DNA from: a bacterium
GTDB lineage: Bacteria; Patescibacteriota; Minisyncoccia; Phycocordibacterales; UBA12088
Direction of reading: 5' to 3'
NCBI GenBank assembly: GCA_003252295.1
Contig: QKEV01000004.1
Location: 1-36,490, forward strand
DNA: 36,490 nucleotides
Positions 779 to 35,890 of the stretch are shown in pieces. The stretch's first letter is position 1; each line of letters opens with the position of its first letter. The position numbers were made by a program, and so were the translations under genes. A model generated the notes under the pieces. The model made no database searches, was not told the origin of the DNA, and saw only the letters and a list, made by a program, of their open reading frames with translations.

Positions 779-1825
779 ATGCTGAATATCAACATGAATT
801 CCTTTCAAAAAAAATACAAGGTCCTTAAGGATATCAAAGAAAGAAAGAAATTGACTAAGAAAAAAGATCCCATCAACTTTACTCTCACTTCAAAAGTTGT
901 TGGTGCTAATACAGTTTCAAGTACCGACAGAAGAATGATCATAAGAAAATTGGAAGATGAAAAAGTTATTAAAATTGTTGCACCAACAGAAGAAGCTGAT
1001 TATGTAACTAGTGTTGACTTGCTGGACAGAGTTGACTCTATTTCCATAGAAACACTTCCAAAATTTATATTTATATGTGGATATTACTCACTAATTTCTA
1101 CCGTTCAACAAGTGTCAGGTTTTTTAAAAAACAAAAAATATCTTAATACTGGTTTTATCATTTTGCTTTTAATAACCTTATTATCTGCTGGGTATAAAAT
1201 ATCTGGAATACAAATTGGACCAATCAATCTTGAACCCTCTGAAGAAACACCTCCTCCTCTCTTTAAATACTCTTTTGATTCTAATGAAAAAGTTTTTAAG
1301 GTTACAGGCGATGAAAATGTAGACGTAATCAGTGCAGACTGGTTTATGATTGGTTACTGGGGATGGGAAGAAAACAAGCTCGATTTGAAAAAAGTTAACA
1401 ATCTAGATAAAGAGCTAAGTGTTATGGAAATCCGCGACGCATATGGTACTCCGTTAGTAAACATGCTTCAAAAATGGGGAAAAGATTTAATTGAATGTGA
1501 ATTTTTTAGACTTACTCAAGATGCTTTACCTGTAATGGTAACTACTATTTATGACACAACTGAAAAAACTGGTCTTGAAAACAAAGACCTACTAATCATT
1601 ACTCGAATAGATACCACCAGACCCAATCCAAAAATTTTTATAAGAAATGTCACAGATTACAGTATTGTTAACGATTTTTTTAATAAATATTCTTATCAAA
1701 TTATTGATGCTTCGGAACACATAAAAAATGACTATGAATATAGTAATGAAAACTATACAGGAGGTATTAGGTTAGATAACGGTAAATGTATGATGATTGA
1801 GAATCAACCACTTGGAGGATATTAA
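779..1825 (+). CDS. Hypothetical membrane protein: basic N-terminal region, two predicted TM helices, ~200-aa C-terminal domain
   Basis: ORF track 764-1825 starts at TTG; the first ATG is at 779. Hydrophobic stretches FIFICGYYSLISTV and GFIILLLITLLSAGY. No family recognised. Confidence 0.6.
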   Translation: MLNINMNSFQKKYKVLKDIKERKKLTKKKDPINFTLTSKVVGANTVSSTDRRMIIRKLEDEKVIKIVAPTEEADYVTSVDLLDRVDSISIETLPKFIFICGYYSLISTVQQVSGFLKNKKYLNTGFIILLLITLLSAGYKISGIQIGPINLEPSEETPPPLFKYSFDSNEKVFKVTGDENVDVISADWFMIGYWGWEENKLDLKKVNNLDKELSVMEIRDAYGTPLVNMLQKWGKDLIECEFFRLTQDALPVMVTTIYDTTEKTGLENKDLLIITRIDTTRPNPKIFIRNVTDYSIVNDFFNKYSYQIIDASEHIKNDYEYSNENYTGGIRLDNGKCMMIENQPLGGY

Positions 1826-2299: not shown

Positions 2300-2878
2300 C
2301 TAATTTAGTTTATCGACAAGCATTCGCGCAAGTATGGCTATACGAGCTTCGTCTTTATGTTTTACAAGAGATTGTATGTATTTTTTATCACCCATCGAAA
2401 GATGAGATAGCATTATGCCAGATGACGTAAATGCAAGTATGCCCAAGATCTTGTTTTTTACATCCAAACTACGAGAATAGAGAGCGGTATGAATTGTTTT
2501 TTTATTCAGTAAATATTTACTAGCCACAACCTTGGGAAAGAGCGCACGAAGCGTAGCATTTGTAACTCGGTACTTATTTTTAGAAACATAACTCTCCAAT
2601 AATCTCCCTGACCACTCGTGATCCTTTGACCATCCAAGTAAACTGATTGCTCTTGGTAACTCTTTAGTGTTTTTGTACTTAGCGAGCAAAGACATACACA
2701 GTTCCTTATCTTTTGCTGTTTGAATAAAAGAGGTCTCATGTTTCTGCAAGATCATATCACTGGTACACCACCAATACCCCTTGTCGTATGTCATAACTAA
2801 ATCCACATTTAATTTTTGCTGGTATGTACCCAACAAAGAAACGTATTCTTTCAAGGACTGCATTACATCTTCATTCAT
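2300..2878 (-). CDS. Hypothetical protein (192 aa), downstream of the ATP-grasp gene
   Basis: ORF track. Same strand as the RiPP genes but separated from them by a hairpin. No recognisable motifs and no obvious SD. Confidence 0.5.
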   Translation of the reverse strand: MNEDVMQSLKEYVSLLGTYQQKLNVDLVMTYDKGYWWCTSDMILQKHETSFIQTAKDKELCMSLLAKYKNTKELPRAISLLGWSKDHEWSGRLLESYVSKNKYRVTNATLRALFPKVVASKYLLNKKTIHTALYSRSLDVKNKILGILAFTSSGIMLSHLSMGDKKYIQSLVKHKDEARIAILARMLVDKLN

Positions 2879-2895: not shown

Positions 2896-2925
2896 AAAAT
2901 CGCGGTATTGAAACCGCGATTTTTT
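2896..2925. terminator. Hairpin with flanking A and T tracts (bidirectional terminator-like)
   Basis: AAAATCGCGGT - ATTGAA - ACCGCGATTTT, with a T5 run on the + strand. On the minus strand it follows the ATP-grasp stop codon at 2936. Confidence 0.5.
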
Positions 2926-2935
2926 ATGCCAACTC

Positions 2936-3295
2936 TTAAACCAAATGCCTAACAATGGTCTCACTAATCGGCATTCCAAGTTTAGTTTCCATCCATCCCC
3001 ATCCACCTTGTTGGTTCAGTTCAAGAAAGTAAAACTTGTCATTCACATCCTCAATGAGGTCAAAAACAGCAAATCGTAACTGCAATATCTTTAGCAATTT
3101 TCTACACCTCCCCATAACATCCGTTGGCAATCGATATGGTTTGGATGTCTCAGTTGCTTTTTCATTTTTCCTCCAATCAACATCATTCTTGCTTGCATCA
3201 CCAACACTACAAGCAAAAATTTCCTCATCAACCACAACTACACGTAGTTCCTGTTTTTTCTCGATTTCCTGTTGGAACAAAACAGGAGGATTCAT
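2936..3295 (-). CDS. ATP-grasp RiPP macrocyclase (MdnC/MvdD-like), C-terminal part
   Basis: PVLFQQEIEKKQELRVVVVDEEIFA, DWRK, PYRLP and YFLELNQQGGWGWMETKLGMPISETIVRHL match, from memory, the conserved blocks of microviridin-type ATP-grasp ligases (P.TFQE, ELR..VVG, DWRK, PY.LP, FLE.NP.G.W.E, PIS.AI). Confidence 0.8.
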   Translation of the reverse strand: MNPPVLFQQEIEKKQELRVVVVDEEIFACSVGDASKNDVDWRKNEKATETSKPYRLPTDVMGRCRKLLKILQLRFAVFDLIEDVNDKFYFLELNQQGGWGWMETKLGMPISETIVRHLV

Positions 3296-3852
3296 ATTTC
3301 CAAATGGTTGGCAGTTACCCTGTTTGTAAACAACACGGTATGTTTAGTGCCAGATGACACAATCCTCCCAACCTTTATGGCTTTTGTTATCACCCTCTTG
3401 TGTCTATCCCAAAACTTTCTAAGTTCCACAGAACTGTTAGTGACTATTGTTTCTGGCACCTCAAAACCAACACTCTGCGCAGTCCTGAGCTGCAGAAACT
3501 TTAGATCTGCATTATTAACCGCACTTGGGTAATTCATCCACAGCAATGGTGAGATATCACTTAACGAACCAAGTAGTGTGTCATGTAATTCCTGAATAGC
3601 GAATTGTTGGTATATGTCCTGAAGATTCGAAACAGAAAATGTACCAGCATGACGATACATTGTGTTGTATACGCCAGTAACACTATTTGCAACATCTGTA
3701 AGTTCTGAGGTTACGTGTGTTTGCCAAAGTATTTTATCTTCACCGTATGAATCGGCATCTATGGCAACATGGGGTATGTTTTTTTGAACACAGTAATTCT
3801 GAACAAGAAGTGCGTTGTTGTTGCCTCCTCGCTGAAACAAGACAAGTATCAT
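3292..3852 (-). CDS. ATP-grasp RiPP macrocyclase (MdnC/MvdD-like), N-terminal part
   Basis: KFLQLRTAQSVGFEVPETIVTNSSVELRKFW...VITKAIK...VLFTNRVT aligns with the central block of MdnC-type ligases. I place the start at ATG 3852 (MILVLFQRGG), which has GAGAGGT 4 nt upstream. The track start at 3891 lies inside a hairpin. The stop overlaps the next ORF's start codon as ATGA. Confidence 0.75.
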   Translation of the reverse strand: MILVLFQRGGNNNALLVQNYCVQKNIPHVAIDADSYGEDKILWQTHVTSELTDVANSVTGVYNTMYRHAGTFSVSNLQDIYQQFAIQELHDTLLGSLSDISPLLWMNYPSAVNNADLKFLQLRTAQSVGFEVPETIVTNSSVELRKFWDRHKRVITKAIKVGRIVSSGTKHTVLFTNRVTANHLEI

Positions 3853-3873
3853 AATGACCTCTCTTTTTAAAAC

Positions 3874-3900
3874 AGTCCCGCCATGAGTCATGGCGGGACT
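3874..3900 (-). promoter_or_regulatory. Intercistronic stem-loop between precursor ORF and ligase (attenuator, partial terminator or stabiliser)
   Basis: AGTCCCGCCATGA-G-TCATGGCGGGACT is a near-perfect 27-nt palindrome giving a ~11-12 bp GC-rich stem. On the minus-strand RNA it is followed by GUUUUAAAAAG. Confidence 0.55.
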
Positions 3901-3911
3901 TAGTCAAAATG

Positions 3912-4055
3912 TTAACCAATGCCAGGCAACGGCAAGGTGGGGTTGGGGCCTGCACAGCAGGTATCATCGTCGCATGTCTCAGTTTGGTCGTGTTCGATTT
4001 CCTCTGCAAAAATCATCTGAAAGGGCACATTACCGTTTTCGTTTTGTTCAGACAT
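3912..4055 (-). CDS. Candidate graspetide precursor peptide (47 aa), not in ORF track
   Basis: Own translation gives MSEQNENGNVPFQMIFAEEIEHDQTETCDDDTCCAGPNPTLPLPGIG*. SD AGAGGT lies 5 nt upstream of the ATG at 4055; the stop is TAA at 3914-3912. It sits on the same strand as the ATP-grasp ORF, 59 nt upstream of it. Confidence 0.6.
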   Translation of the reverse strand: MSEQNENGNVPFQMIFAEEIEHDQTETCDDDTCCAGPNPTLPLPGIG

Positions 4056-4095
4056 CTCATACCTCTTTTAGTTAAGTTTCAGTTGACTACTCTCG

Positions 4096-4140
4096 TCTAT
4101 AATCATGTATAACATAGTATTCAAAAAATACAACGGTCAA
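4096..4140 (-). promoter_or_regulatory. Candidate sigma70-type promoter(s) for the precursor/ligase operon
   Basis: Minus strand has TTGACC (4140-4135), an 18-nt spacer and TATGTT (4116-4111). Alternatively TTGAAT (4124-4119), a 17-nt spacer and TATAGA (4101-4096). Pattern match only. Confidence 0.3.
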
Positions 4141-4143
4141 AAT

Positions 4144-4165
4144 CTGTCACTTTTGTCACTTTTTG
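4144..4165. promoter_or_regulatory. 22-nt motif CTGTCACTTTTGTCACTTTTTG, copy 2
   Basis: Identical to 755-776. Lies just upstream of the candidate -35 of the minus-strand RiPP operon and 3 nt before repeat-element copy 2. Confidence 0.5.
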
Positions 4166-4168
4166 AGG

Positions 4169-4262
4169 TGCACGAGACGCGTCGTAAGGTTTTTGAAAAG
4201 TAGTTGAAAATAGCTATACCCCACCTGACGGGGCCTGGTTCTAACCCGAGACGGCCCGCAAT
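4169..4262 (+). repeat. ~95-nt repeat element, copy 2 (candidate small structured RNA)
   Basis: See 1826-1920. The variable block here is CCACCTGACGGGGCC (with the preceding CC it reads CCCC-ACCTGAC-GGGG), against CTGCTTGGCAGACTG in copy 1 (CTGC-TTG-GCAG). Confidence 0.6.
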
Positions 4263-4267
4263 CAACC

Positions 4268-4300
4268 AAAACCAGAGCGTTAGCTCTGGTTTTGTTGTTG
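4268..4300 (+). terminator. Rho-independent terminator
   Basis: AAAACCAGAGC - GTTA - GCTCTGGTTTT followed by GTTGTTGTT. Confidence 0.7.
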
Positions 4301-4455
4301 TTGCGAGAGAGTGTGGTGGTTCGAAAGCCGGAGCAGCGGGTCCCTGCTCGTAATGAAATGAAGAGTGGGGCTGCGAGGCGGGGTCGAAAGTGCTTAGTGT
4401 TTGAGAAGCTTTGCTTTGAATAACACTTAGCAACTCGTGACCGAATCCCACATAA
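4301..4455 (+). other. GC-rich, hairpin-dense non-coding stretch (candidate structured leader or ncRNA, class unknown)
   Basis: Hairpins GAGCAG-CGGGTCC-CTGCTC (4331-4349) and TGCTTAGTGTT...AACACTTAGCA (4391-4432, with an apical AAGC-TTT-GCTT). Possible closing pairs GTGGG (4365-4369) with CCCAC (4446-4450). Only implausible antisense ORFs cover this stretch. Confidence 0.3.
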
Positions 4456-4546
4456 TTTTATAGTAATCTCAGAGCGCAACATGACCACAGGTCGTGTGAG
4501 CAGTGAGATTCCCACCTTCAAAATTCCTCTGCTATACTGGGACTCA

Positions 4547-5302
4547 ATGAATACAAAAGTCACTCCTTTAGAAGGGGTAGAGTTTGATGTTTTGATTAGG
4601 AAAAGAATAAAAGACTTTTGGGGGTATGGTAGTTTAAAGTCTCCCGTGTGGTTTGTAGGTATGGAAGAAGGAGTAGGTGCAGGCACCCCAAGAAAAGACT
4701 TTCTCACTCGTTTTCGCCTTTCTGAAAACAAAGTGACAATCGATATGCGAGAAGGTATGGAAATTTACCCGGATCACATGCGCTGGTTTAAGGATGGAGC
4801 TCCTATTCAACCCACCTGGAAGTACCCTATTGCTCTCTATCTCTACCTGAAAAACAATATGATACCAATGAGAGAAGAGGTACGAGAACATCAAATACAC
4901 ACTCTTGCTGATAGTAAGAAAAAAGAAACTGCATGTATTGAACTCATGCCACTTCCTGCAAACTCAATAAAAGAAAACTCATGGGTCTACGGAAAACTCA
5001 ATGTTCCTAACTTGAGCACTCGCAAGGAATACATAGAAACGTATAAACCAAGACGAGTTGCGAAACTACAAAAACTCATCCAACAACATAAACCAAAGTT
5101 GGTTATCTTCTATTCCCTTACCTATCTGCCAGATTGGAAAAAAGTTATCGGAAAAGAAATAGAGGAAGTAACAAAAGGTATGTACTTCACTCAAACCAAA
5201 GACACCTCCTTCTGTGTTATTCCACAGAGTGTGTCGTTTGGTATGTCATACAAAAGACTGTATGCGTATGGTAAAAAGGTAAAAGATAAGATTATTTTAT
5301 AG
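4547..5302 (+). CDS. Hypothetical protein (251 aa)
   Basis: Track ORF 4481-5302. I prefer the internal ATG at 4547 (MNTKVTPLEG) because the upstream part overlaps the structured region. VWFVGMEEG and ELMPLPANS are faintly reminiscent of uracil-DNA-glycosylase-superfamily motifs; this is not a confident assignment. Confidence 0.55.
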   Translation: MNTKVTPLEGVEFDVLIRKRIKDFWGYGSLKSPVWFVGMEEGVGAGTPRKDFLTRFRLSENKVTIDMREGMEIYPDHMRWFKDGAPIQPTWKYPIALYLYLKNNMIPMREEVREHQIHTLADSKKKETACIELMPLPANSIKENSWVYGKLNVPNLSTRKEYIETYKPRRVAKLQKLIQQHKPKLVIFYSLTYLPDWKKVIGKEIEEVTKGMYFTQTKDTSFCVIPQSVSFGMSYKRLYAYGKKVKDKIIL

Positions 5303-5432
5303 ATATCAGTAAAAAATATATGGAGACCCCCAACCTCTTGCAGACTCACAAACAAATTGGTAGATAAACACACCGATATAGCACTTAAAAACATGATTTC
5401 ATTTGTAAAAATTACCTGTATACTTACCTACC

Positions 5433-6170
5433 ATGAAGAACAAAAAATATATTTCAGGTAGCGTACTCGTTCTAGCGATAATTGCGATAGTTGCGGGTAT
5501 ATTCTACGTACAAGAAAACAACAAAGTACAGATCGTTTCCCGTGATGATCCAACCGATATTGTTGTTGATTTTTACCAAACATGGCTGGATACCGTGCAG
5601 TCAACCAGTACTGATCCATACCAAGCAGGTCTTACAGACAACACACTCTTGAGTAAAGCATTGCAGAAAAAACTATCTCAAGCTCATGAAGCCAGCGACG
5701 TTGACCCGGTACTATGCCAGATTCCAACACCAAGACGGTTTAAGGTTGAAACTGCTTACGAGCAACCTGATGAGATACAAATGAATGTATTCTCCAAAGG
5801 ATCAGAAACGGTAAGTCAGTCAGTGGTTACCATACGACAACTTGACGAAGGTTGGTACATTGATGACATTTCCTGCATCAACGAATCTGACCCTAACACA
5901 GACCGTGAGTTTACCTTTGAACATGAAGGTGTCCTCTCAAAGGATCCCGCATTTGTGACCGATGCAGCATACTGGCACATCATATACATCCAGAACATTG
6001 TTCCTGACAGAGTTGTTCCCCTCTTCTTTGACACAGAAAGTACCTGTATCGACCAAGACAAGAAAGAATCAACTTGCGACCAAAACCAGTTCACCGAAAT
6101 GCAGCATGTCATTGTTCGTGGCAACATGACCGAAGCTGGACTTGAAGTACAGCAAGTTGAGACACTGTAA
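5433..6170 (+). CDS. Membrane-anchored hypothetical protein
   Basis: ORF track. N-terminal TM segment SVLVLAIIAIVAGIF followed by a soluble domain. Confidence 0.65.
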   Translation: MKNKKYISGSVLVLAIIAIVAGIFYVQENNKVQIVSRDDPTDIVVDFYQTWLDTVQSTSTDPYQAGLTDNTLLSKALQKKLSQAHEASDVDPVLCQIPTPRRFKVETAYEQPDEIQMNVFSKGSETVSQSVVTIRQLDEGWYIDDISCINESDPNTDREFTFEHEGVLSKDPAFVTDAAYWHIIYIQNIVPDRVVPLFFDTESTCIDQDKKESTCDQNQFTEMQHVIVRGNMTEAGLEVQQVETL

Positions 6171-6202
6171 CCATTTACCGAAGACTAACTCAGACAGAAA
6201 AC

Positions 6203-6235
6203 AAACCCCCAGGTCACATGTGACCTGGGGGTTTT
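6203..6235. terminator. Bidirectional terminator between convergent genes
   Basis: Perfect palindrome AAACCCCCAGGTCACA/TGTGACCTGGGGGTTT flanked by A and T runs. Confidence 0.75.
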
Positions 6236-6252
6236 GTGGCTATTACCTATAC

Positions 6253-6594
6253 CTACCGTTGCCATACTCTGAGTGTGATACCCTTTTCCGCTGCCATCTT
6301 TTCTGCCTCACCAATGAGTTCTGGAACAGATGAATTGTTACCTTTCGCGAACAAATCTATCCTCGCTTGGTTTTCAGGATTTGCCAGCTTCGGTGCTTGG
6401 GGATGATGAAGATACAACCATGCAATCACCTTCACTTTCCAGTCGTCAGCAGACTCCAGTCTTGCTACAAGAAAATTTTCATGAGATCGCTGCAACTTGA
6501 TTCCCTCTTCTGTGGGCTGTCTGTCACCCTTCTCACTTCCAAACGAGAGAAACCCTTCTCCGTGCTCAATTACTTTCTGAATGTCTTCACTCAT
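6253..6594 (-). CDS. Hypothetical protein (113 aa), paralog of 10576-10884
   Basis: ORF track. DWKVKVIAWLYLHHPQ...ELIGEAEKM parallels DKMVRVNAYFYLKHPK...EIITEAQKM in the other ORF. Confidence 0.6.
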   Translation of the reverse strand: MSEDIQKVIEHGEGFLSFGSEKGDRQPTEEGIKLQRSHENFLVARLESADDWKVKVIAWLYLHHPQAPKLANPENQARIDLFAKGNNSSVPELIGEAEKMAAEKGITLRVWQR

Positions 6595-6740
6595 ACCTTA
6601 TACCTCCTTATGTAAGATATATTCTCTAGCACAGGGCTAGTGTCTACACGCTACTATGCCAGAAGGTAAAAAAATTGTAAATATTTTCTACACGACCACC
6701 ATTTACACTCCAGCTTTAGTAAATATGCTACTATAGCTAC

Positions 6741-7340
6741 ATGAACGATGACTCACGTTTGGCAGACTTCCTCTTTGAACTAGGCACCATGCGAAAGGTG
6801 CTCAGGATGCACCGTCAAACTCTGTTGACTGATGATATGTCAGACAACATCGCGACACACTCACTGCGTGTGACCATGATCGGCTGGCTACTTGCAAAGA
6901 AAGAGAACGCTGACCTCTACAAGGTTGTCATGATGTGCCTACTACATGACCTTGGAGAGATACGAAGCAACGACCACAACTGGATCAACAAGCGCTACAT
7001 GAAGGTGCATGATGAAGAGATCATTGAAGAGCAGCTTGGTACACTACCCTTCCCTGAACTAAAAGAAATTGCACAAGAGTACGAGGAACGGAAAACAAAA
7101 GAAGCTATCATCGCAAAAGATGCTGACCTACTCGACCAAGTCCTCCTTTTGAAAGAGTACGAATGGCAAGGCAACAAAGAAGCAGCGGTATGGCTTCATG
7201 GAAAAGGAGATGATGTGGGCAACGCACAGCTCAAACGACTACAGCTCGACTCATCGAGAGAACTCGGAGAGGCTATCTACGGTAGAAATCCTTCAGACTG
7301 GTGGAACAACCTCTGGACCAGTGAGAACCGTAAAGATTAA
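6741..7340 (+). CDS. HD-domain phosphohydrolase (YfbR-like 5'-nucleotidase type)
   Basis: HSLRV ... LLHDLGE ... D motif pattern of the HD superfamily. Confidence 0.75.
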   Translation: MNDDSRLADFLFELGTMRKVLRMHRQTLLTDDMSDNIATHSLRVTMIGWLLAKKENADLYKVVMMCLLHDLGEIRSNDHNWINKRYMKVHDEEIIEEQLGTLPFPELKEIAQEYEERKTKEAIIAKDADLLDQVLLLKEYEWQGNKEAAVWLHGKGDDVGNAQLKRLQLDSSRELGEAIYGRNPSDWWNNLWTSENRKD

Positions 7341-7349
7341 TATAATTCT

Positions 7350-7772
7350 ATGGAACAAGAGCAAAAACCAAAAGTGGGTGTCGGAGTAATGATCTTTAAA
7401 GAAGGAAAGATTTTACTTGGCAAAAGAAAAGGTTCGCATGGTAGCGGAGAGTACGCCTTTCCCGGTGGACACCTAGAGTACATGGAATCTTTTGTAGATT
7501 GTGCAAAGAGAGAGATAGACGAAGAATGTGGCATAGAAGTTGAAAACATCAGCTTTCAGTATGTTGGAAATATTGTGAAGTACGCACCAAAACACTATGT
7601 ACACATAGGACTCACTGCAGACTGGAAAAGTGGTACACCAAAAGTACTTGAACCAGACAAGGTAGAAACATGGGACTGGTATGATATGGAAGAACTACCT
7701 AAACCAATGTTTGAAATGAGCGAACTAGCGATTAAGTATCATAAAACTGGAGAAAACTATATAGACGAGTAA
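7350..7772 (+). CDS. NUDIX hydrolase
   Basis: Canonical Nudix box GGHLEYMESFVDCAKREIDEECGI (Gx5Ex7REUxEExGU). Confidence 0.85.
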   Translation: MEQEQKPKVGVGVMIFKEGKILLGKRKGSHGSGEYAFPGGHLEYMESFVDCAKREIDEECGIEVENISFQYVGNIVKYAPKHYVHIGLTADWKSGTPKVLEPDKVETWDWYDMEELPKPMFEMSELAIKYHKTGENYIDE

Positions 7773-7789
7773 TGCAACATAAAAAAACC

Positions 7790-7876
7790 ATGACCGCATA
7801 CAACAAACTCGTGAGAGACAGCATCCCGGAAATGCTCGATGGGAAAAATATTCCCTACGACCTCAAGGGTGACTAA
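7790..7876 (+). pseudogene. Truncated MazG-like NTP pyrophosphohydrolase remnant (28 codons)
   Basis: Own translation gives MTAYNKLVRDSIPEMLDGKNIPYDLKGD*. YNKLVRD.IPE is the typical N-terminus of small MazG-type house-cleaning NTPases, but the ORF stops after 28 aa. Confidence 0.45.
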
Positions 7877-7890
7877 AACAAACTCCTTAC

Positions 7891-8067
7891 TTACTCCTTC
7901 CAGTCGGTTATCACCACACTGCTACCCTTCTTTTTGACCACTACTTTTTGCTTACTCTTCCATTTGAGCTCTCGGACTATCTCAATAGGAAGCGAAACTG
8001 TTATGGTACCTCCTCCTGCCTTACCGAGTTTACGAATATTTTTTTCTTCAAGTTTTCTTCGTGTCAT
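7891..8067 (-). CDS. AbrB/MazE/SpoVT-family DNA-binding protein (58 aa), not in ORF track
   Basis: Own translation gives MTRRKLEEKNIRKLGKAGGGTITVSLPIEIVRELKWKSKQKVVVKKKGSSVVITDWKE*. The block ..VSLPIEIVRELKWK...V.V is the SpoVT-AbrB swapped-hairpin signature. Confidence 0.6.
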   Translation of the reverse strand: MTRRKLEEKNIRKLGKAGGGTITVSLPIEIVRELKWKSKQKVVVKKKGSSVVITDWKE

Positions 8068-8083
8068 ATATACACAGTCTAAC

Positions 8084-8123
8084 AGAAATACATATTAAAA
8101 TACGTATTTTAATATGTATTTCT
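8084..8123. promoter_or_regulatory. Perfect 40-bp palindrome in the divergent abrB-like / tyrS promoter region
   Basis: AGAAATACATATTAAAATAC|GTATTTTAATATGTATTTCT. It lies upstream of both flanking gene starts, so it is more likely an operator than a terminator. Confidence 0.5.
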
Positions 8124-8193
8124 TTTTCATGGTGCTTTTTCAGAGAATACGGTACACTAACAACGTTGAATAGTAACTAGTATTTCTAGGTGT

Positions 8194-9414
8194 ATGACCA
8201 AGGTAATAACTGATAAAGAAAAAATAGAAGAGCTACTGATGCGCTCTGTAGCAGAGATACTCCCTTCAAGGGATGGTCTTCGTGAGGCACTCTCATCTGG
8301 TAAGCAGCTCCGTATCTACATAGGTACAGACCCGACTGGTACTTCCCTACACCTCGGACACGCAACCAACTACATGATCCTTGAGAAGTTTCGCAGACTT
8401 GGACACGAGATTATTTTCCTCGTTGGTGACTTTACTGCACGCATTGGTGACCCGACCGACAAGAGCGACTCGGCACGAAAGCAGCTCACCCGTGAGCAGG
8501 TTGTCGAACATGTAAAGACTTGGATGGACCAGGTGCGACCGATTATCGACATAGACAACAAAGAGAACCCTGTTCGAGTCCTCTACAACCACGAGTGGCT
8601 CTCGAAGCTCACCTTTGAGGATGTTGTGAACCTCGCTTCAAACTTTACCGTGCAGCAGATGATAGAACGAGACATGTTCCAGGTGCGCATACAGGAAGGA
8701 AAACCACTCTACATGCACGAACTGTTCTACCCGCTCATGCAAGGATACGACTCTGTTGCTATGGATGTCGACATTGAAATGTGCGGTGCTGACCAGAAGT
8801 TCAATGCACTTGCGGGACGAACCCTTTTGAAGAAACTGAAGGATAAGGAAAAGTTTGTCTTCATTACTACTCTTCTCGAGAATCCGGTCACCAAAGAGAA
8901 GATGATGTCAAAATCAATGGGAACAGGTGTGTTCCTCGACTTTGACGCAGAGCACATGTACGGCGCCATCATGGCTCAAGCTGATGAAAACATGCGGCAG
9001 CTCTTCGTGGACTGCACATGGCTCACACTTGAAGAGATAGAGGAGAAGCTCAAGGGTGACAACCCTCGAGACACAAAAATGCAGCTTGCTCTTGAAATCA
9101 CCAAGATCTACCACGGAGAAGATGCAGCACAGAAAGCACAGAACGCTTTTGTGCAAACATTCCAAAAGAAAGAGGTGCCTGACGACATGCCAGACTTTAC
9201 CGTTACCGCAAAAATGACCCTTATAGACATCTTAACCAAGAGCGGTCTTGCAACTAGCAGGACCGATGCTCGACGCACCGTTGAACAAGGTGCTGTTAAA
9301 CTGAACGGTGAAAAGGTTGCTGTTGACGCACTTGAACAGACTGTAAACCTCAAAGATGGTGAGGTGGTCCTCCAGAAAGGTAAACGCTACTTCCTTCGAC
9401 TTTTACAAAAGTAA
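8194..9414 (+). CDS. tyrS: Tyrosine--tRNA ligase
   Basis: GTDPTGTSLHLGH (HIGH), KMMSKSMG (KMSKS) and a C-terminal S4-like domain (RTDARRTVEQGAVKLNGEKV). Confidence 0.9.
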   Translation: MTKVITDKEKIEELLMRSVAEILPSRDGLREALSSGKQLRIYIGTDPTGTSLHLGHATNYMILEKFRRLGHEIIFLVGDFTARIGDPTDKSDSARKQLTREQVVEHVKTWMDQVRPIIDIDNKENPVRVLYNHEWLSKLTFEDVVNLASNFTVQQMIERDMFQVRIQEGKPLYMHELFYPLMQGYDSVAMDVDIEMCGADQKFNALAGRTLLKKLKDKEKFVFITTLLENPVTKEKMMSKSMGTGVFLDFDAEHMYGAIMAQADENMRQLFVDCTWLTLEEIEEKLKGDNPRDTKMQLALEITKIYHGEDAAQKAQNAFVQTFQKKEVPDDMPDFTVTAKMTLIDILTKSGLATSRTDARRTVEQGAVKLNGEKVAVDALEQTVNLKDGEVVLQKGKRYFLRLLQK

Positions 9415-9477
9415 GCCCATATTGAATACTGTGTCTAAGTGAGTTACGATGTCACGGTGCATTTACTTATATAGCAT

Positions 9478-11038: not shown

Positions 11039-11647
11039 ATGAAAATACATCCATTTCATGCACTTGCTGAGGTGAGTCCCGTCATACGACTTCTTACTGC
11101 ATCGGACATCATTTTAGGTGCTGGTATCGGTCTTTTTGGTCCAATCTTTGCCATCCTCATCGCCAATAAGATCAACACAAACAACCCACTCGAGGTCATC
11201 AGTATTGGTACCTCTATATACCTCTTTACTCAGAGCGTTGGGTTAATGCCTCTTGGAATACTCATCGACAAGATCAAGGGAGAGCATGATGACTTTTGGA
11301 TACTATTTGCAGGTAGTCTTGTGTACGTCCTCGTTCCACTACTCTACTTACTCATCACTGAACCATGGCATCTTTTTGTTATCCAGTTTATTTACGGAGT
11401 GGGTACTGCGATGACACTCCCTACCTGGACCGCTATTTTTTCTCGTCACATTGATACCGGCAAAGAAGGTATTGAATGGAGCTTATGGCAATCATCCACT
11501 AACTTGTCATGTGCGATAGCGGCTCCTGTTGGCGGCTTCATCGCTTCATACTATGGCTTTAACGCAATTATGTACTTGGCTTCAGCAATGGCATCATTGA
11601 GCTGTTTATATATATTCCTTATACGAAAAAGTCTCTATAAACGCTAA
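11039..11647 (+). CDS. MFS-type transporter, half-size (N-terminal six-helix half only)
   Basis: Six hydrophobic segments, with a motif-A-like loop GILIDKIKGEHDD after TM2. Ends after ~TM6, and only 76 nt remain before the next gene. Confidence 0.5.
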   Translation: MKIHPFHALAEVSPVIRLLTASDIILGAGIGLFGPIFAILIANKINTNNPLEVISIGTSIYLFTQSVGLMPLGILIDKIKGEHDDFWILFAGSLVYVLVPLLYLLITEPWHLFVIQFIYGVGTAMTLPTWTAIFSRHIDTGKEGIEWSLWQSSTNLSCAIAAPVGGFIASYYGFNAIMYLASAMASLSCLYIFLIRKSLYKR

Positions 11648-12625: not shown

Positions 12626-15463
12626 TTACTTCACCACAAGACTCACCATGCGACCCTTCACCACAATCTCGCGCACTACCTCCTTCCCTGCAAGGTGAGG
12701 CTTCACACCATCAACCTCCTTTGCCTTCTTCACGAGCTCGCTGTCCTCTGTATCAGGTGCCGCTTCAAAGGTACCACGCGTCTTGCCGTTCACCTGTACC
12801 GCAACGGTAACTGTTGCCGCTGCAAGTATACTCTCATCACACACTGGCCACTCCTCTAAGTGAATTGAGTCTGTTCCGCCTAGCTCTGACCACAGCTCCT
12901 CGGTGAGATGTGGCGCAAATGGTGCGAGCAGCTTCAAGAATGTTTTGTACTCTTCAGTACCTACCGACGTACGTTTCTCCATATCGTTTGTATGTATCAT
13001 GAGCTGGCTTATAGCAGTATTGAATGAGAAGTCTTGCACATCACGAGCAACTTTTTGTATGGTCTGATGCAGCACCAGTTCATTCATCTCACCATCATCA
13101 CTCACCTTTTCTTTGATGCCGTACACCTTTTCAAGGAAACGACGAGCACCGGTCATGTGGTCAGTTGACCATGCTATCGCCTGCACAAACGGACCCATGA
13201 ACATCTCATACACACGTAGCGTATCTGCACCAACGTTGTCTATCACGTCGTCTGGGTTGATAACATTACCCCAGCGCTTACTCATCTTTCGTCCATCCTC
13301 AGCCTGAATGAGCCCCACGGTGTAGAGTTTTTGGAACGGTTCTATATAGCTCACAGCTCCTATGTCGTAGAGCACTTTATGCCAAAAGCGTGAATAGATG
13401 AGGTGTCGTGTTGCATGCTCCATGCCTCCTACATACATGTCGACAGGAGACCAGTACTGCTCCTTTTTCTTGTCTACTAGCTCTTTATCGTTCTTTGGGT
13501 CAATGTAGCGCAAGTAGTACCATGATGAACCTGCCCACTGCGGCATGGTGTTCGTCTCACGCTTTCCCGGAGCTCCACACGTTGGACACGTAGTGTTCAC
13601 CCACCCTTCAATGTTCGCAAGTGGTGACTCACCGGTTCCCGTCGGCTCGTAGCTCTCAACATCAGGAAGAATGACAGGGAGATCCTCTTCTGGAACAGCA
13701 ACAGGACCACACTTTTCACAATGAATAATCGGAATAGGTTCACCCCAGTATCGCTGTCGAGAGAACACCCAGTCCTGCAAACGGTACTGAGTAGTGAGCT
13801 TACCGCCAGCATGCTTGGTTACTTTCTCTTTTGCTTCCTCTACCGTAAGCCCATCAAACTTTCCTGAGTTCATGAGAAAACCATAGCCAGGTAGTGCTTC
13901 ATCACGTTGCAACAAGCTCCACACTTGCTTTTGATGGTCAGGTATGAGCCTCTCAAGCACCTCAGACTCATCCACCCATACGAGCGTATGCTTCTTTGCT
14001 TCGTCCTCAGGAATCTCACCTTGATTCTTTACACTATCCACCTCAGCAAGAAATACATGAGCAATCGCAAGCCTGTTTTCTTTTTTATGTGATGCACAGT
14101 ATCTAGCAGCTGTAATCCATTCGAGTTTCTTTATGATTGTAACGCCGGCAAGTGCTGCTTCTTCCTCTATCTCAGCAAGTACAGCCTCCTCAGGAGTCTG
14201 CCCTTCCTCTATACCACCCATGATGGCAGTAGTAATACCTTCGAGTGTGCCATGCCAATCCAGGAGCGCATACTTACCCGTTTCTTTATCTTTCAAGTGA
14301 ACTATGACGGTGTCTCGCTTCACTTCAGTAAATCCTTCTTGTGGAGGATTGTTTGAGTCATCAGCACATGGCACCACTACCTGACGGATAGGAAGGTTGA
14401 ACTTTTTTGCAAACGCAAAGTCTCGTTCATCATGAGCTGGGACTGCCATGATGGCACCTGTACCGTAGGTAGCAAGTACGTAGTCAGCAAGGTAAACCGG
14501 TATCTCTTCATTGTTAACTGGGTTTACCGCATAGACACCATCAAGTACTACCCCTGTCTTCTCCTTCCCTTCTGCCGTACGTTCTATCTCTGTCTTCTTA
14601 GCAGTTTGCTCAATGTACACTTCAACCTCTTTTCTATTTGTAACTACTTCAAGAAAATCTGAAACAAAAGCATGCTCAGGAGCAAGTACCATGTACGTAG
14701 CACCAAAAAGTGTATCAGGTCGTGTCGTAAAGACCTCTATCTTCTTGTCACTATCTTTTACCGCAAAGGTGACCGACGCACCCTCACTGCGACCTATCCA
14801 GTTTCGCTGCATCTCCTTTACAGACTCAGACCAAGGCAAATCCTCAAGGTCCTCGAGCAGCCTGTCTGCATACTCAGTTATTTTGAGCACCCACTGTCGC
14901 ATTGGCTTCTTCTCTACTACGGTACCACAGCGCTCACACACGTTACCTTCAAGGTCTTCGTTTGCGAGTCCTGTCTTGCAGCTCGGACACCAGTTGATAG
15001 GTTCATGTGACTCAAACGCTAAACCACGCTCAAACATCTTCACGAACGCCCACTGCGTCCATTTGTAAAACTCAGGGTCAGTTGTGTTTATCTCTCTATC
15101 CCAGTCATAGTTAAAACCAATCTTTTCCAACTGCTCTTTGAAACGTGCCACGTTCTTCTTTACTGCTATTTCAGGATGCACCTTGTTCTTGATCGCATAG
15201 TTCTCAGCAGGAAGACCAAAAGCGTCCCACCCCATTGGATGCAGTACATTGCAGCCACTCATGGACTTGAAACGTGCGTACACATCTGTTGCAATGTACC
15301 CCTTCGGATGACCCACATGGAGCCCATCACCTGATGGGTACGGGAACATATCCATAATAAAGTACTTCTCCTTCCCCTCGTCTTCACGTGTTTTATACAG
15401 GGCGGTATCACTCCACTTCTTTTGCCACTTCTTTTCTATTGCTTTGTGATCGTATGATTTCAT
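12626..15463 (-). CDS. leuS: Leucine--tRNA ligase with an internal Nudix-like insertion
   Basis: PYPSGDGLHVGHPKGY (HIGH), TTRPDTLFGATY (CP1 editing domain), KMSKRWGNV (KMSKS). The track ORF starts at GTG 15484. I prefer ATG 15463 (MKSYDHKAIEKKWQKKW), which matches the usual LeuRS N-terminus. Confidence 0.9.
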   Translation of the reverse strand: MKSYDHKAIEKKWQKKWSDTALYKTREDEGKEKYFIMDMFPYPSGDGLHVGHPKGYIATDVYARFKSMSGCNVLHPMGWDAFGLPAENYAIKNKVHPEIAVKKNVARFKEQLEKIGFNYDWDREINTTDPEFYKWTQWAFVKMFERGLAFESHEPINWCPSCKTGLANEDLEGNVCERCGTVVEKKPMRQWVLKITEYADRLLEDLEDLPWSESVKEMQRNWIGRSEGASVTFAVKDSDKKIEVFTTRPDTLFGATYMVLAPEHAFVSDFLEVVTNRKEVEVYIEQTAKKTEIERTAEGKEKTGVVLDGVYAVNPVNNEEIPVYLADYVLATYGTGAIMAVPAHDERDFAFAKKFNLPIRQVVVPCADDSNNPPQEGFTEVKRDTVIVHLKDKETGKYALLDWHGTLEGITTAIMGGIEEGQTPEEAVLAEIEEEAALAGVTIIKKLEWITAARYCASHKKENRLAIAHVFLAEVDSVKNQGEIPEDEAKKHTLVWVDESEVLERLIPDHQKQVWSLLQRDEALPGYGFLMNSGKFDGLTVEEAKEKVTKHAGGKLTTQYRLQDWVFSRQRYWGEPIPIIHCEKCGPVAVPEEDLPVILPDVESYEPTGTGESPLANIEGWVNTTCPTCGAPGKRETNTMPQWAGSSWYYLRYIDPKNDKELVDKKKEQYWSPVDMYVGGMEHATRHLIYSRFWHKVLYDIGAVSYIEPFQKLYTVGLIQAEDGRKMSKRWGNVINPDDVIDNVGADTLRVYEMFMGPFVQAIAWSTDHMTGARRFLEKVYGIKEKVSDDGEMNELVLHQTIQKVARDVQDFSFNTAISQLMIHTNDMEKRTSVGTEEYKTFLKLLAPFAPHLTEELWSELGGTDSIHLEEWPVCDESILAAATVTVAVQVNGKTRGTFEAAPDTEDSELVKKAKEVDGVKPHLAGKEVVREIVVKGRMVSLVVK

Positions 15464-15552
15464 ATTTGCTACTGAGGATAACACCCCCTATTAATTGTCT
15501 AATACACTATATACTGTATATACGAGCAGCTACTCGTGCAAATAACTATACA

Positions 15553-35793: not shown

Positions 35794-35805
35794 TTACTTC
35801 AAATA

Positions 35806-35840
35806 ATCCTGTATGAAAGAACCCTTCTTTCATACAGGAT
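35806..35840. terminator. 15-bp stem hairpin between convergent genes
   Basis: ATCCTGTATGAAAGA - ACCCT - TCTTTCATACAGGAT. It has no strong T tract. Confidence 0.5.
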
Positions 35841-35850
35841 ATATTGTGTT

Positions 35851-35890
35851 AATTAGGTATGTAATTAATTATATACCTAATTACATACCT
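35851..35890. repeat. AT-rich nested inverted repeats
   Basis: AGGTATGTAATTA (35855-35867) pairs with TAATTACATACCT (35878-35890). An alternative pairing is AATTAGGTAT (35851-35860) with ATACCTAATT (35873-35882). Confidence 0.5.

Follow-up and report, generated by a model that had tools for sequence, protein, structure and literature searches.

The locus at nt 2936–3852 of contig QKEV01000004.1, on the minus strand of a 36,490 nt stretch of DNA (the window, analysed at its full length), carries two adjacent open reading frames (ORFs) that together resemble an ATP-grasp ligase. It raises the question of whether a member of the Patescibacteria (Candidate Phyla Radiation, CPR) possesses here a working pathway for a ribosomally synthesised peptide with post-translational modification (RiPP). 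The locus is likely to encode a graspetide (an omega-ester/amide RiPP) and to belong to a small patescibacterial sub-family of such cassettes that had not been characterised before; its ligase has probably been inactivated recently in this genome. Graspetides are protease-inhibitor-like cyclic peptides. The module is about 1.8 kb in size and comprises, in order, genes for a short precursor peptide, the ligase and a partner protein of 192 aa.

Ligase, precursor and partner genes

The first ligase ORF runs from nt 3891 to 3292 (minus strand). Its true start is ATG 3852: translated from there the protein matches the N-terminal MILILFQRGG of P0001, P0002 and P0004, which are intact relatives, and GAGAGG, a likely ribosome-binding site, lies 7 nt 5′ of this codon. 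The N-terminal piece of the enzyme (nt 3292–3852; 186 codons and TGA) covers the N-domain as well as the central region, where the ATP-binding Lys (VITK) is located, and the C-terminal piece (nt 2936–3295, minus strand; 119 aa) holds the hinge FQxEIxKKxELRV, DWR and the D...E.N ligands of Mg2+. The two ORFs are arranged head to tail in different frames and give a joined length of 305 aa, in which every microviridin-type block named in the initial annotation was found (LKFLQL, VPETIVTN, VITK, VLFTNRVT, PPVLFQQEIEKKQELRVVVV, DWRK, PYRLP, YFLELNQQGGWGWME and PISETI). Profile searches with the joined sequence bore out the assignment, with RiPP maturases ranked first (NCBIfam TIGR04187, 198.7 bits, E = 1.3e-58; MvdC, 178.8; MvdD, 143.2; grasp-with-spasm, 86.1) and the primary-metabolism models well behind (RimK, 55.1 bits; glutathione synthase GshB, 22.5 bits). 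The C-terminal piece has a Pfam match to a RimK-like ATP-grasp domain (27.9 bits), and the Pfam hit of the ligase to this domain is above the cut-off. A sequence search of the PDB returned CdnC (1e-29), AMdnB (4.5e-28), MdnC/MdnB (1e-27 and 1e-22), PruB (6e-21) and also PsnB. Given the strength of the family and PDB matches, the similarity of the blocks is far beyond chance, and the alignments to families and structures cross the junction of the two ORFs without interruption.

Intact relatives of the ligase are 309 aa long and share 83% (P0001), 80% (P0002) and 51% (P0004) identity with it. The fold search (Foldseek) used an AlphaFold2 (AF2) model of P0001 (predicted local distance difference test, pLDDT, 72.7), and all six solved graspetide ligases outranked LysX/ArgX, RimK and Ddl; these neighbours are graspetide ligases with bound leader peptides. 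The catalytic columns of the ATP-grasp fold are kept and invariant across the alignments (K157, Q194, K199, E202, R204, D226-W-R228, D265, E278 and N280). Judged by sequence and fold, the enzyme is of the RiPP type (MdnB/MdnC/CdnC-like) and not RimK, GshB or Ddl, so that the refuting outcome named in the initial annotation, best matches to those families, did not occur. Among 1.84 billion representatives searched there were 10,818 ATP-grasp relatives at E ≤ 0.001, and the sub-family to which the locus belongs makes up about 13 clusters at 50% identity with a full-length score >198 bits.

The precursor gene (nt 3912–4055, minus strand; 47 aa, MSEQNENGNVPFQMIFAEEIEHDQTETCDDDTCCAGPNPTLPLPGIG) was recognised from the ORF list and from homologues beside the sub-family ligases, and 59 nt separate its end from the start codon of the ligase downstream. 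The peptide has a leader (PFQMIFAE..E.D), a variable middle and a C-terminal PTLPLPxxG, with Thr, Asp and Glu present; the core is TETCDDDTCCAGPNPTLPLPGIG. Homologues adjoin every sub-family ligase for which flanking DNA is available (L001, L002/3, L004, L088–90, L091/2 and L094). Their leaders follow [PSL]FQ[ML]hF and then a conserved acid (the PFQMIFAE type occurs in 6 lineages), the middle of 10–20 residues is variable, not even its Thr, Asp, Glu and Cys content being constant, and the C-terminus is an invariant QP[TS]LP[LI]PxxG followed by the stop codon. In a six-frame translation of 934 kb from 104 sources this C-terminal motif had 13 occurrences, each of them next to a sub-family ligase and accompanied by the leader motif; none lies beside the approximately 85 other graspetide ligases fetched. 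Outside the leader, the only positions conserved throughout the sub-family are the acid 9 residues after FQ, the Thr/Ser of PTLPLP and the terminal Gly. Between three close relatives the leader shows 0–1 amino-acid (nonsynonymous) changes and the middle 2–5.5. Positive selection on the core was considered and rejected, as the nonsynonymous rate (pN) does not exceed the synonymous rate (pS). The precursor matches no NCBIfam model.

The third gene (nt 2300–2878, minus strand) specifies the 192 aa partner, a predicted all-alpha solenoid of the armadillo/HEAT type, recognised from gene linkage and an AF2 model. In the initial annotation this ORF was an uncharacterised neighbour and the system a stand-alone pair of precursor and ligase. 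The locus is indeed minimal, with a precursor directly upstream of the ligase, but the 192 aa ORF is a strictly linked, conserved third component. Its family numbers about 20 proteins, none of which matches a Pfam, NCBIfam or PHROG model, and in every context read the gene lies directly downstream of an ATP-grasp of 309–316 aa. The partner gene is under purifying selection, with a ratio of nonsynonymous to synonymous substitution rates (dN/dS) of 0.19 against L001. Its model (pLDDT 91.9; predicted template modelling score, pTM, 0.87) shows an all-alpha solenoid that includes a single small hairpin, and the best PDB fold matches are designed armadillo-repeat proteins and importin-alpha, both of them peptide-binding scaffolds; at a template modelling (TM) score of only about 0.47 such a match marks the fold class and not homology. 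A DUF6624 or ‘cluster 23’ identity found no support, none of 17 members of the partner family matching PF20329, and kinship with the TPR-like gene at the same position in a Niyogibacteria locus was rejected (hhalign probability 0.1).

The order precursor, ligase, partner of about 195 aa recurs in L001, L002/L003, L088–L090 and L091/L092. In L094 all three genes are likewise present, but there the precursor is on the opposite strand (nt 2902–3048, minus, divergent from the ligase at nt 3187–4134, plus), and DDE, IstB/Mu, resolvase and rve genes surround that module. Upstream of the window precursor a consensus scan found a sigma-70-like promoter (TTGACC, 18 nt, TATGTT; nt 4111–4140, minus strand), which is a pattern match. 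The gap between precursor and ligase contains an inverted repeat forming a 12-bp GC-rich hairpin followed by UGUUUU (nt 3874–3900, minus strand; fold energy −27.4 kcal/mol, z = −5.7), which looks like a leaky terminator or attenuator; a leaky terminator 3′ of the precursor gene is common in RiPP operons. Another hairpin, of 11 bp and followed by UUUUCC, lies between ligase and partner (nt 2896–2923, minus strand; −19.5 kcal/mol, z = −4.7). The neighbouring ORFs (nt 2300–2878, 4481–5302, 764–1825 and 1892–2149) have no model match to a GNAT acetyltransferase, an ABC transporter/peptidase or a second ATP-grasp, in agreement with what had been noted initially about the lack of such genes next to the ligase.

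A mechanism can be proposed on this basis. The promoter near nt 4111–4140 would drive transcription of the minus-strand precursor, the leaky hairpin, the ligase and the partner. The leader PFQMIFAE would be bound by the ligase, by homology with MdnC, CdnC and PsnB, after which a side-chain carboxylate would be phosphorylated to an acyl phosphate and a lactone or lactam closed onto Thr or Ser (or Lys) of the same peptide. The pair most likely to form the ring would be the conserved acid of the E.D stretch, or an acid of the middle region, together with the invariant Thr of PTLPLPxxG; from the conservation pattern, participation of the Thr of PTLPLP in the ring is most likely. The partner may hold the invariant C-terminal motif or stabilise the ligase, a role suggested by the peptide-binding type of its helical repeat and by strict co-inheritance. 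A more specific version of this scheme makes the partner indispensable. In it the ligase would clamp the leader, the armadillo-like partner would clamp the follower QPTLPLPxxG, and the ring would form across or beside the variable middle; the ring partners might then be the invariant Thr and a leader-proximal acid, or even the carboxylate of the C-terminal Gly. It is a possible arrangement, though not a probable one. If true, CPR cells would gain a compact, mobile scaffold displaying diverse peptide loops.

The deletion in the ligase gene

The different frames of the two ligase ORFs, which like the conserved nature of the partner had gone unstated in the initial annotation, result from a 13-nt deletion located by DNA alignments against L001 and L004 (junction at nt 3297/3298, minus strand). 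The missing bases are AAAGCGACATCGC in L001, and the alignment shows a single clean gap between TTGGAA and ATATGAAT. More distant ligase relatives also have the longer, in-frame state, which marks the window lineage as the one that lost the bases. The loss puts the two parts out of frame and generates an ATATGA stop/start overlap, and about 4 residues are removed from a loop of variable length between the helix at residues 181–186 and the hinge strand at 190–199 (P0001 model). The ligase gene carries no second lesion. Its dN/dS values against L001 are 0.14 for the N-terminal and 0.08 for the C-terminal part, and the value against L004 is 0.11 overall, while two intact ligase genes compared with each other give 0.136; purifying selection has therefore acted on both parts until now.

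Two ways in which the gene might be read through were examined and rejected. Programmed frameshifting would require a slippery site of the X XXY YYZ type, which is lacking at CAUUUGGAAAUAUGA, and recoding of TGA (genetic code 25) keeps the wrong frame and meets a stop after 18 codons. Long housekeeping genes in the window are uninterrupted (leucyl-tRNA synthetase, LeuRS, 952 aa; RNase J, 674 aa; AtpA; AtpD), from which it follows that random indel error is low and a noisy assembly is disfavoured. The split is most likely genuine, the accessory, mobile cassette having been inactivated very recently.

The strongest challenge to inactivation is that the 13-nt gap is an artefact of assembly or consensus, or a minority variant, in which case the ligase would be intact (309 aa) and the cassette functional. 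The gap is the sole lesion, dN/dS is as low as among intact genes, purifying selection acts on the precursor and partner genes, both of which are intact, and the split ligase (P0003) is found in this contig alone. Against this, the deletion of 13 nt is clean and falls in no homopolymer or repeat, which is atypical of assembler or basecaller error, none of the window's large housekeeping genes has a frameshift, and a truncated gene of the major facilitator superfamily (MFS; nt 11039–11647) indicates that gene decay does occur in the variable region. On balance an artefact or minority variant is unlikely.

Inactivation would also not follow if the split gene were functional, with ATATGA coupling termination of the 186 aa piece to initiation of the 119 aa piece and the fragments assembling into an active two-chain ATP-grasp. 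The native Met codon is left as an ATG overlapping the new TGA, the break falls in a surface loop of variable length between sub-domains, and neither half shows relaxed selection; low dN/dS is, however, equally expected from a recent lesion. No second example was found, the other sub-family genes all being single ORFs, no known split graspetide ligase could be cited, and the sequence upstream lacks a Shine–Dalgarno motif or slippery site, which together make a two-piece enzyme distinctly improbable. That the ligase is instead a RimK/LysX-like enzyme modifying a protein (the partner or a ribosomal protein), the small ORF being incidental, is barely credible: the only Pfam match is to a generic RimK-like domain and the module adjoins ribosomal-protein genes in several CPR genomes, but the best RiPP maturase model exceeds RimK by >140 bits, a small ORF with a microviridin-like leader is conserved in all loci and exclusive to them, and the fold neighbours are leader-bound graspetide ligases.

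Several observations count against the view of the locus as a recently inactivated graspetide cassette. The ligase scores below the curated cut-off of every RiPP-maturase model (TIGR04187, 198.7 against 350 bits; MvdC, TIGR04185, 178.8 against 425; MvdD, TIGR04184, 143.2 against 475), which places it in a separate sub-family; the MdnC/MvdD-type macrocyclase first proposed thus stands as an MdnB/MdnC/CdnC-like RiPP-type ATP-grasp and not as an MdnC/MvdD orthologue. The pre-ATP-grasp N-domain of MvdD (PF21068), present in the more distant relatives P0005–P0009, was not reported by Pfam for the window ligase at E ≤ 1; the AF2 model of P0001 is of low confidence over residues 39–107 of the N-domain. 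Conservation of the ring-forming residues does not follow the usual pattern and the middle varies in Thr, Asp and Glu, so that any ring topology is a guess. The fold match of the partner is generic (TM approximately 0.47), its role being proposed from gene linkage, there is no protease or exporter near the module, and the sub-family loci stem from only about 6 independent lineages. Finally, pseudogene status depends on one assembled sequence, and the ATGA overlap left by the deletion could permit translation of both pieces. With its ligase frameshifted, and being accessory and probably mobile, the window cassette is not to be listed among working biosynthetic capabilities until the reads have been checked.

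Genomic setting and flanking elements

The view of the module as accessory and probably mobile comes from its surroundings here and in its relatives. Genes for transposases or integrases occur at most a few kb from the module in five contexts (L001, L002, L003, L088/89 and L094). The modules of relatives adjoin transposase genes of the IS110, rve, DDE or Mu type and are often wedged into or beside ribosomal-protein operons. The first 4 kb of the window, module included, have a GC content of 33–41%, compared with 44–49% over much of the rest. This low-GC stretch is rich in ORFans, and synteny with the nearest genomes, which were compared in search of an empty site, breaks on the module's side of the LeuRS gene. 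Positions near translation genes were also seen for CPR graspetide modules in L005 (nt 7751–9427), L088 (nt 4769–7388) and L091 (nt 4783–6600). Examples are a module in the str/S10 cluster flanked by an aminotransferase gene and tuf, another situated immediately upstream of rpsS and extended by GNAT and UbiE-methyltransferase genes, and a third lying between a KH-protein gene and trmD.

The module is bracketed by two direct copies of a 91-nt repeat (R; nt 1826–1916 and 4169–4259) that are 87% identical, each followed by a strong plus-strand, terminator-like hairpin, so that the first element extends over nt 1826–1970 and the second, which begins with a 27-nt box and is divergent from the precursor gene, over nt 4139–4305 (both plus strand). 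Shared blocks in the repeats (GCAYGAGACGCGTCG...GCTATAYCC...CCCGAGACGGCCCGC) surround a variable middle. The 27-nt box (two units of GTCACTTTT) occurs at nt 750–776 and 4139–4165; the latter abuts the second R copy, and a membrane-like ORFan of 353 aa separates the former from the first copy. One R copy is conserved beside the precursor gene in L001 (nt 1393–1478, minus strand), where it lies upstream of an IS110 transposase. An origin from a tRNA or attachment site was rejected, since ARAGORN found no tRNA or tmRNA and Rfam gave no match at the gathering threshold and none covering the repeats at E ≤ 5. An exact-pattern scan of viral contigs for the R repeat gave no match. The idea of an IS110 bridge RNA was not adopted, as homology between the window and L001 stops 73 nt before the transposase gene and the window has no transposase. 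The R elements could represent a small RNA gene or a recombination site of the cassette.

Downstream (3′) of the second R copy, nt 4300–4480 form a GC-richer non-coding stretch of about 180 nt with two GAAA-loop hairpins, and the segment nt 4139–4480 folds better than shuffled sequences (z = −3.4 for the plus and −4.2 for the minus strand). The IS110 element of L001 begins where homology stops, corresponding to window position 4324.

The contig itself is, on sequence grounds, patescibacterial, and the CPR-like character initially ascribed to the genome was supported by taxonomic placement. The best named matches of its LeuRS (nt 12626–15484, minus strand) are from Minisyncoccia, Patescibacteria, Parcubacteria and Moraniibacteria (57–65% identity), with closest relatives reaching 73%. 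The protein has a NUDIX domain inserted after the editing domain (residues 410–518), a feature common to most of the best 120 LeuRS homologues, all of them Patescibacteria-like and the closest relatives included; some homologues carry an added alpha/beta-hydrolase fusion. The rest of the window is occupied by housekeeping genes, including those for F-ATPase, TyrRS, YchF, GAPDH and RNase J. A gene for an HD-domain protein (YfbR-like 5′-deoxynucleotidase) stands beside one for a stand-alone NUDIX hydrolase (nt 6741–7772, plus strand), a nucleotide-sanitising pair that adjoins the ORFan region. The ORF at nt 11039–11647 (plus strand; 202 aa) aligns with the MFS_1 profile over its N-terminal half only (positions 6–172 of 347) and is probably a truncated transporter gene, a second sign of decay in the variable region. 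Perfect or near-perfect palindromes of 32–46 nt between convergent or adjacent genes (nt 6203–6234, 8081–8126 and 35802–35890) are likely to be bidirectional terminators.

Relation to known graspetide systems

Graspetide clusters of CPR bacteria have been described previously (Makarova et al. 2022, Biol Direct 17:7, PMC8939145): their ATP-grasps form two branches and are accompanied by short precursors, by accessory proteins of the TPR and ‘cluster 23’ kinds and by UbiE or SPASM enzymes. RODEO groups in which candidate phyla are abundant have also been listed (Carter et al. 2026, PMC13097080). In the present searches 10 of the 80 best loci among GTDB species representatives belonged to Patescibacteria/Saccharibacteria. 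The supposed rarity of RiPP biosynthesis in CPR genomes was thus overstated at first. What is scarce is the sub-family: the GTDB species representatives contain no close relative of the ligase (best identity 38%), and a scan of Joint Genome Institute (JGI) metagenomes yielded three sub-family loci only, two of which were already known. The motifs of the precursor (FQMIFAE, PTLPLP), ligase (NQQGGW) and partner (RALFP, KNKALG) do not occur in the accessible part of the supplementary text of Makarova et al. (2022), nor do those of the sub-family's three proteins in the corresponding part of that of Carter et al. (2026). As far as these sources and searches extend, the sub-family appears to be small and undescribed.

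The loci of Makarova et al. (2022) nevertheless provide the nearest parallel in host and organisation. They too are small CPR loci in which a single ATP-grasp is joined by an accessory gene and by a short precursor whose hydrophobic leader motif follows a Pro; the accessory protein there is uncharacterised or a helical repeat (TPR), and relatives sometimes have a UbiE-type methyltransferase (L088). The published leader motif, Phhx(1,2)h, is similar to PFQMIF (P-h-x-h-h-h) without being strictly the same, and in L088 and L091 Pro is replaced by Ser. Unlike many ‘cluster 23’ proteins, the partner has neither signal peptide nor lipobox. It has no DUF6624 match, and the core of the precursor departs from the TxxxTx(6-10)Dx(1-4)D pattern.

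With the macrocyclases of microviridin/chryseoviridin type, MdnC, MdnB, AMdnB and CdnC (PDB 5IG9, 5IG8, 7M4S, 7MGV), the enzyme shares the ATP-grasp fold and catalytic residues, and they are its best matches in both sequence and fold, yet identity is only 20–26%. The microviridin leader PFFARFL resembles PFQMIFAE, whereas the microviridin core TxKxPSDx(D/E)(D/E) is not present in the precursor. Microviridin clusters contain two ligases, a GNAT and an ABC transporter/peptidase; the present locus has one ligase, no GNAT or ABC match and an additional, obligate-looking partner. The best curated model for the ligase is that of the SAV_5884-family maturases (TIGR04187), which act with GRASP_targ precursors (TIGR04186). 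The score of 198.7 bits, below 350, comes from a match spanning residues 56–303 only, and the precursor has no NCBIfam match.

A partner encoded beside the synthetase and strictly co-occurring with it has a precedent in rosaritide MirB/MirC, where a divergent PpiC-type peptidyl-prolyl isomerase is required for the stability and activity of the ligase (Carter et al. 2026, PMC13097080). Rosaritide belongs to a different graspetide group, and the partner of the present locus is instead a predicted armadillo-like solenoid that matches no family model. Whether graspetides of CPR episymbionts serve in host interaction or competition is a question raised by Makarova et al. (2022, PMC8939145). The sub-family offers a very small and well-delimited test case, with a linked armadillo-like partner and a precursor conserved at both ends around a variable middle; a new way of recognising the substrate, and a useful engineering scaffold, could come to light from such a system. 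Set beside the published CPR graspetides, it is distinguished by the combination of an armadillo-like partner with a precursor that has both leader and follower motifs.

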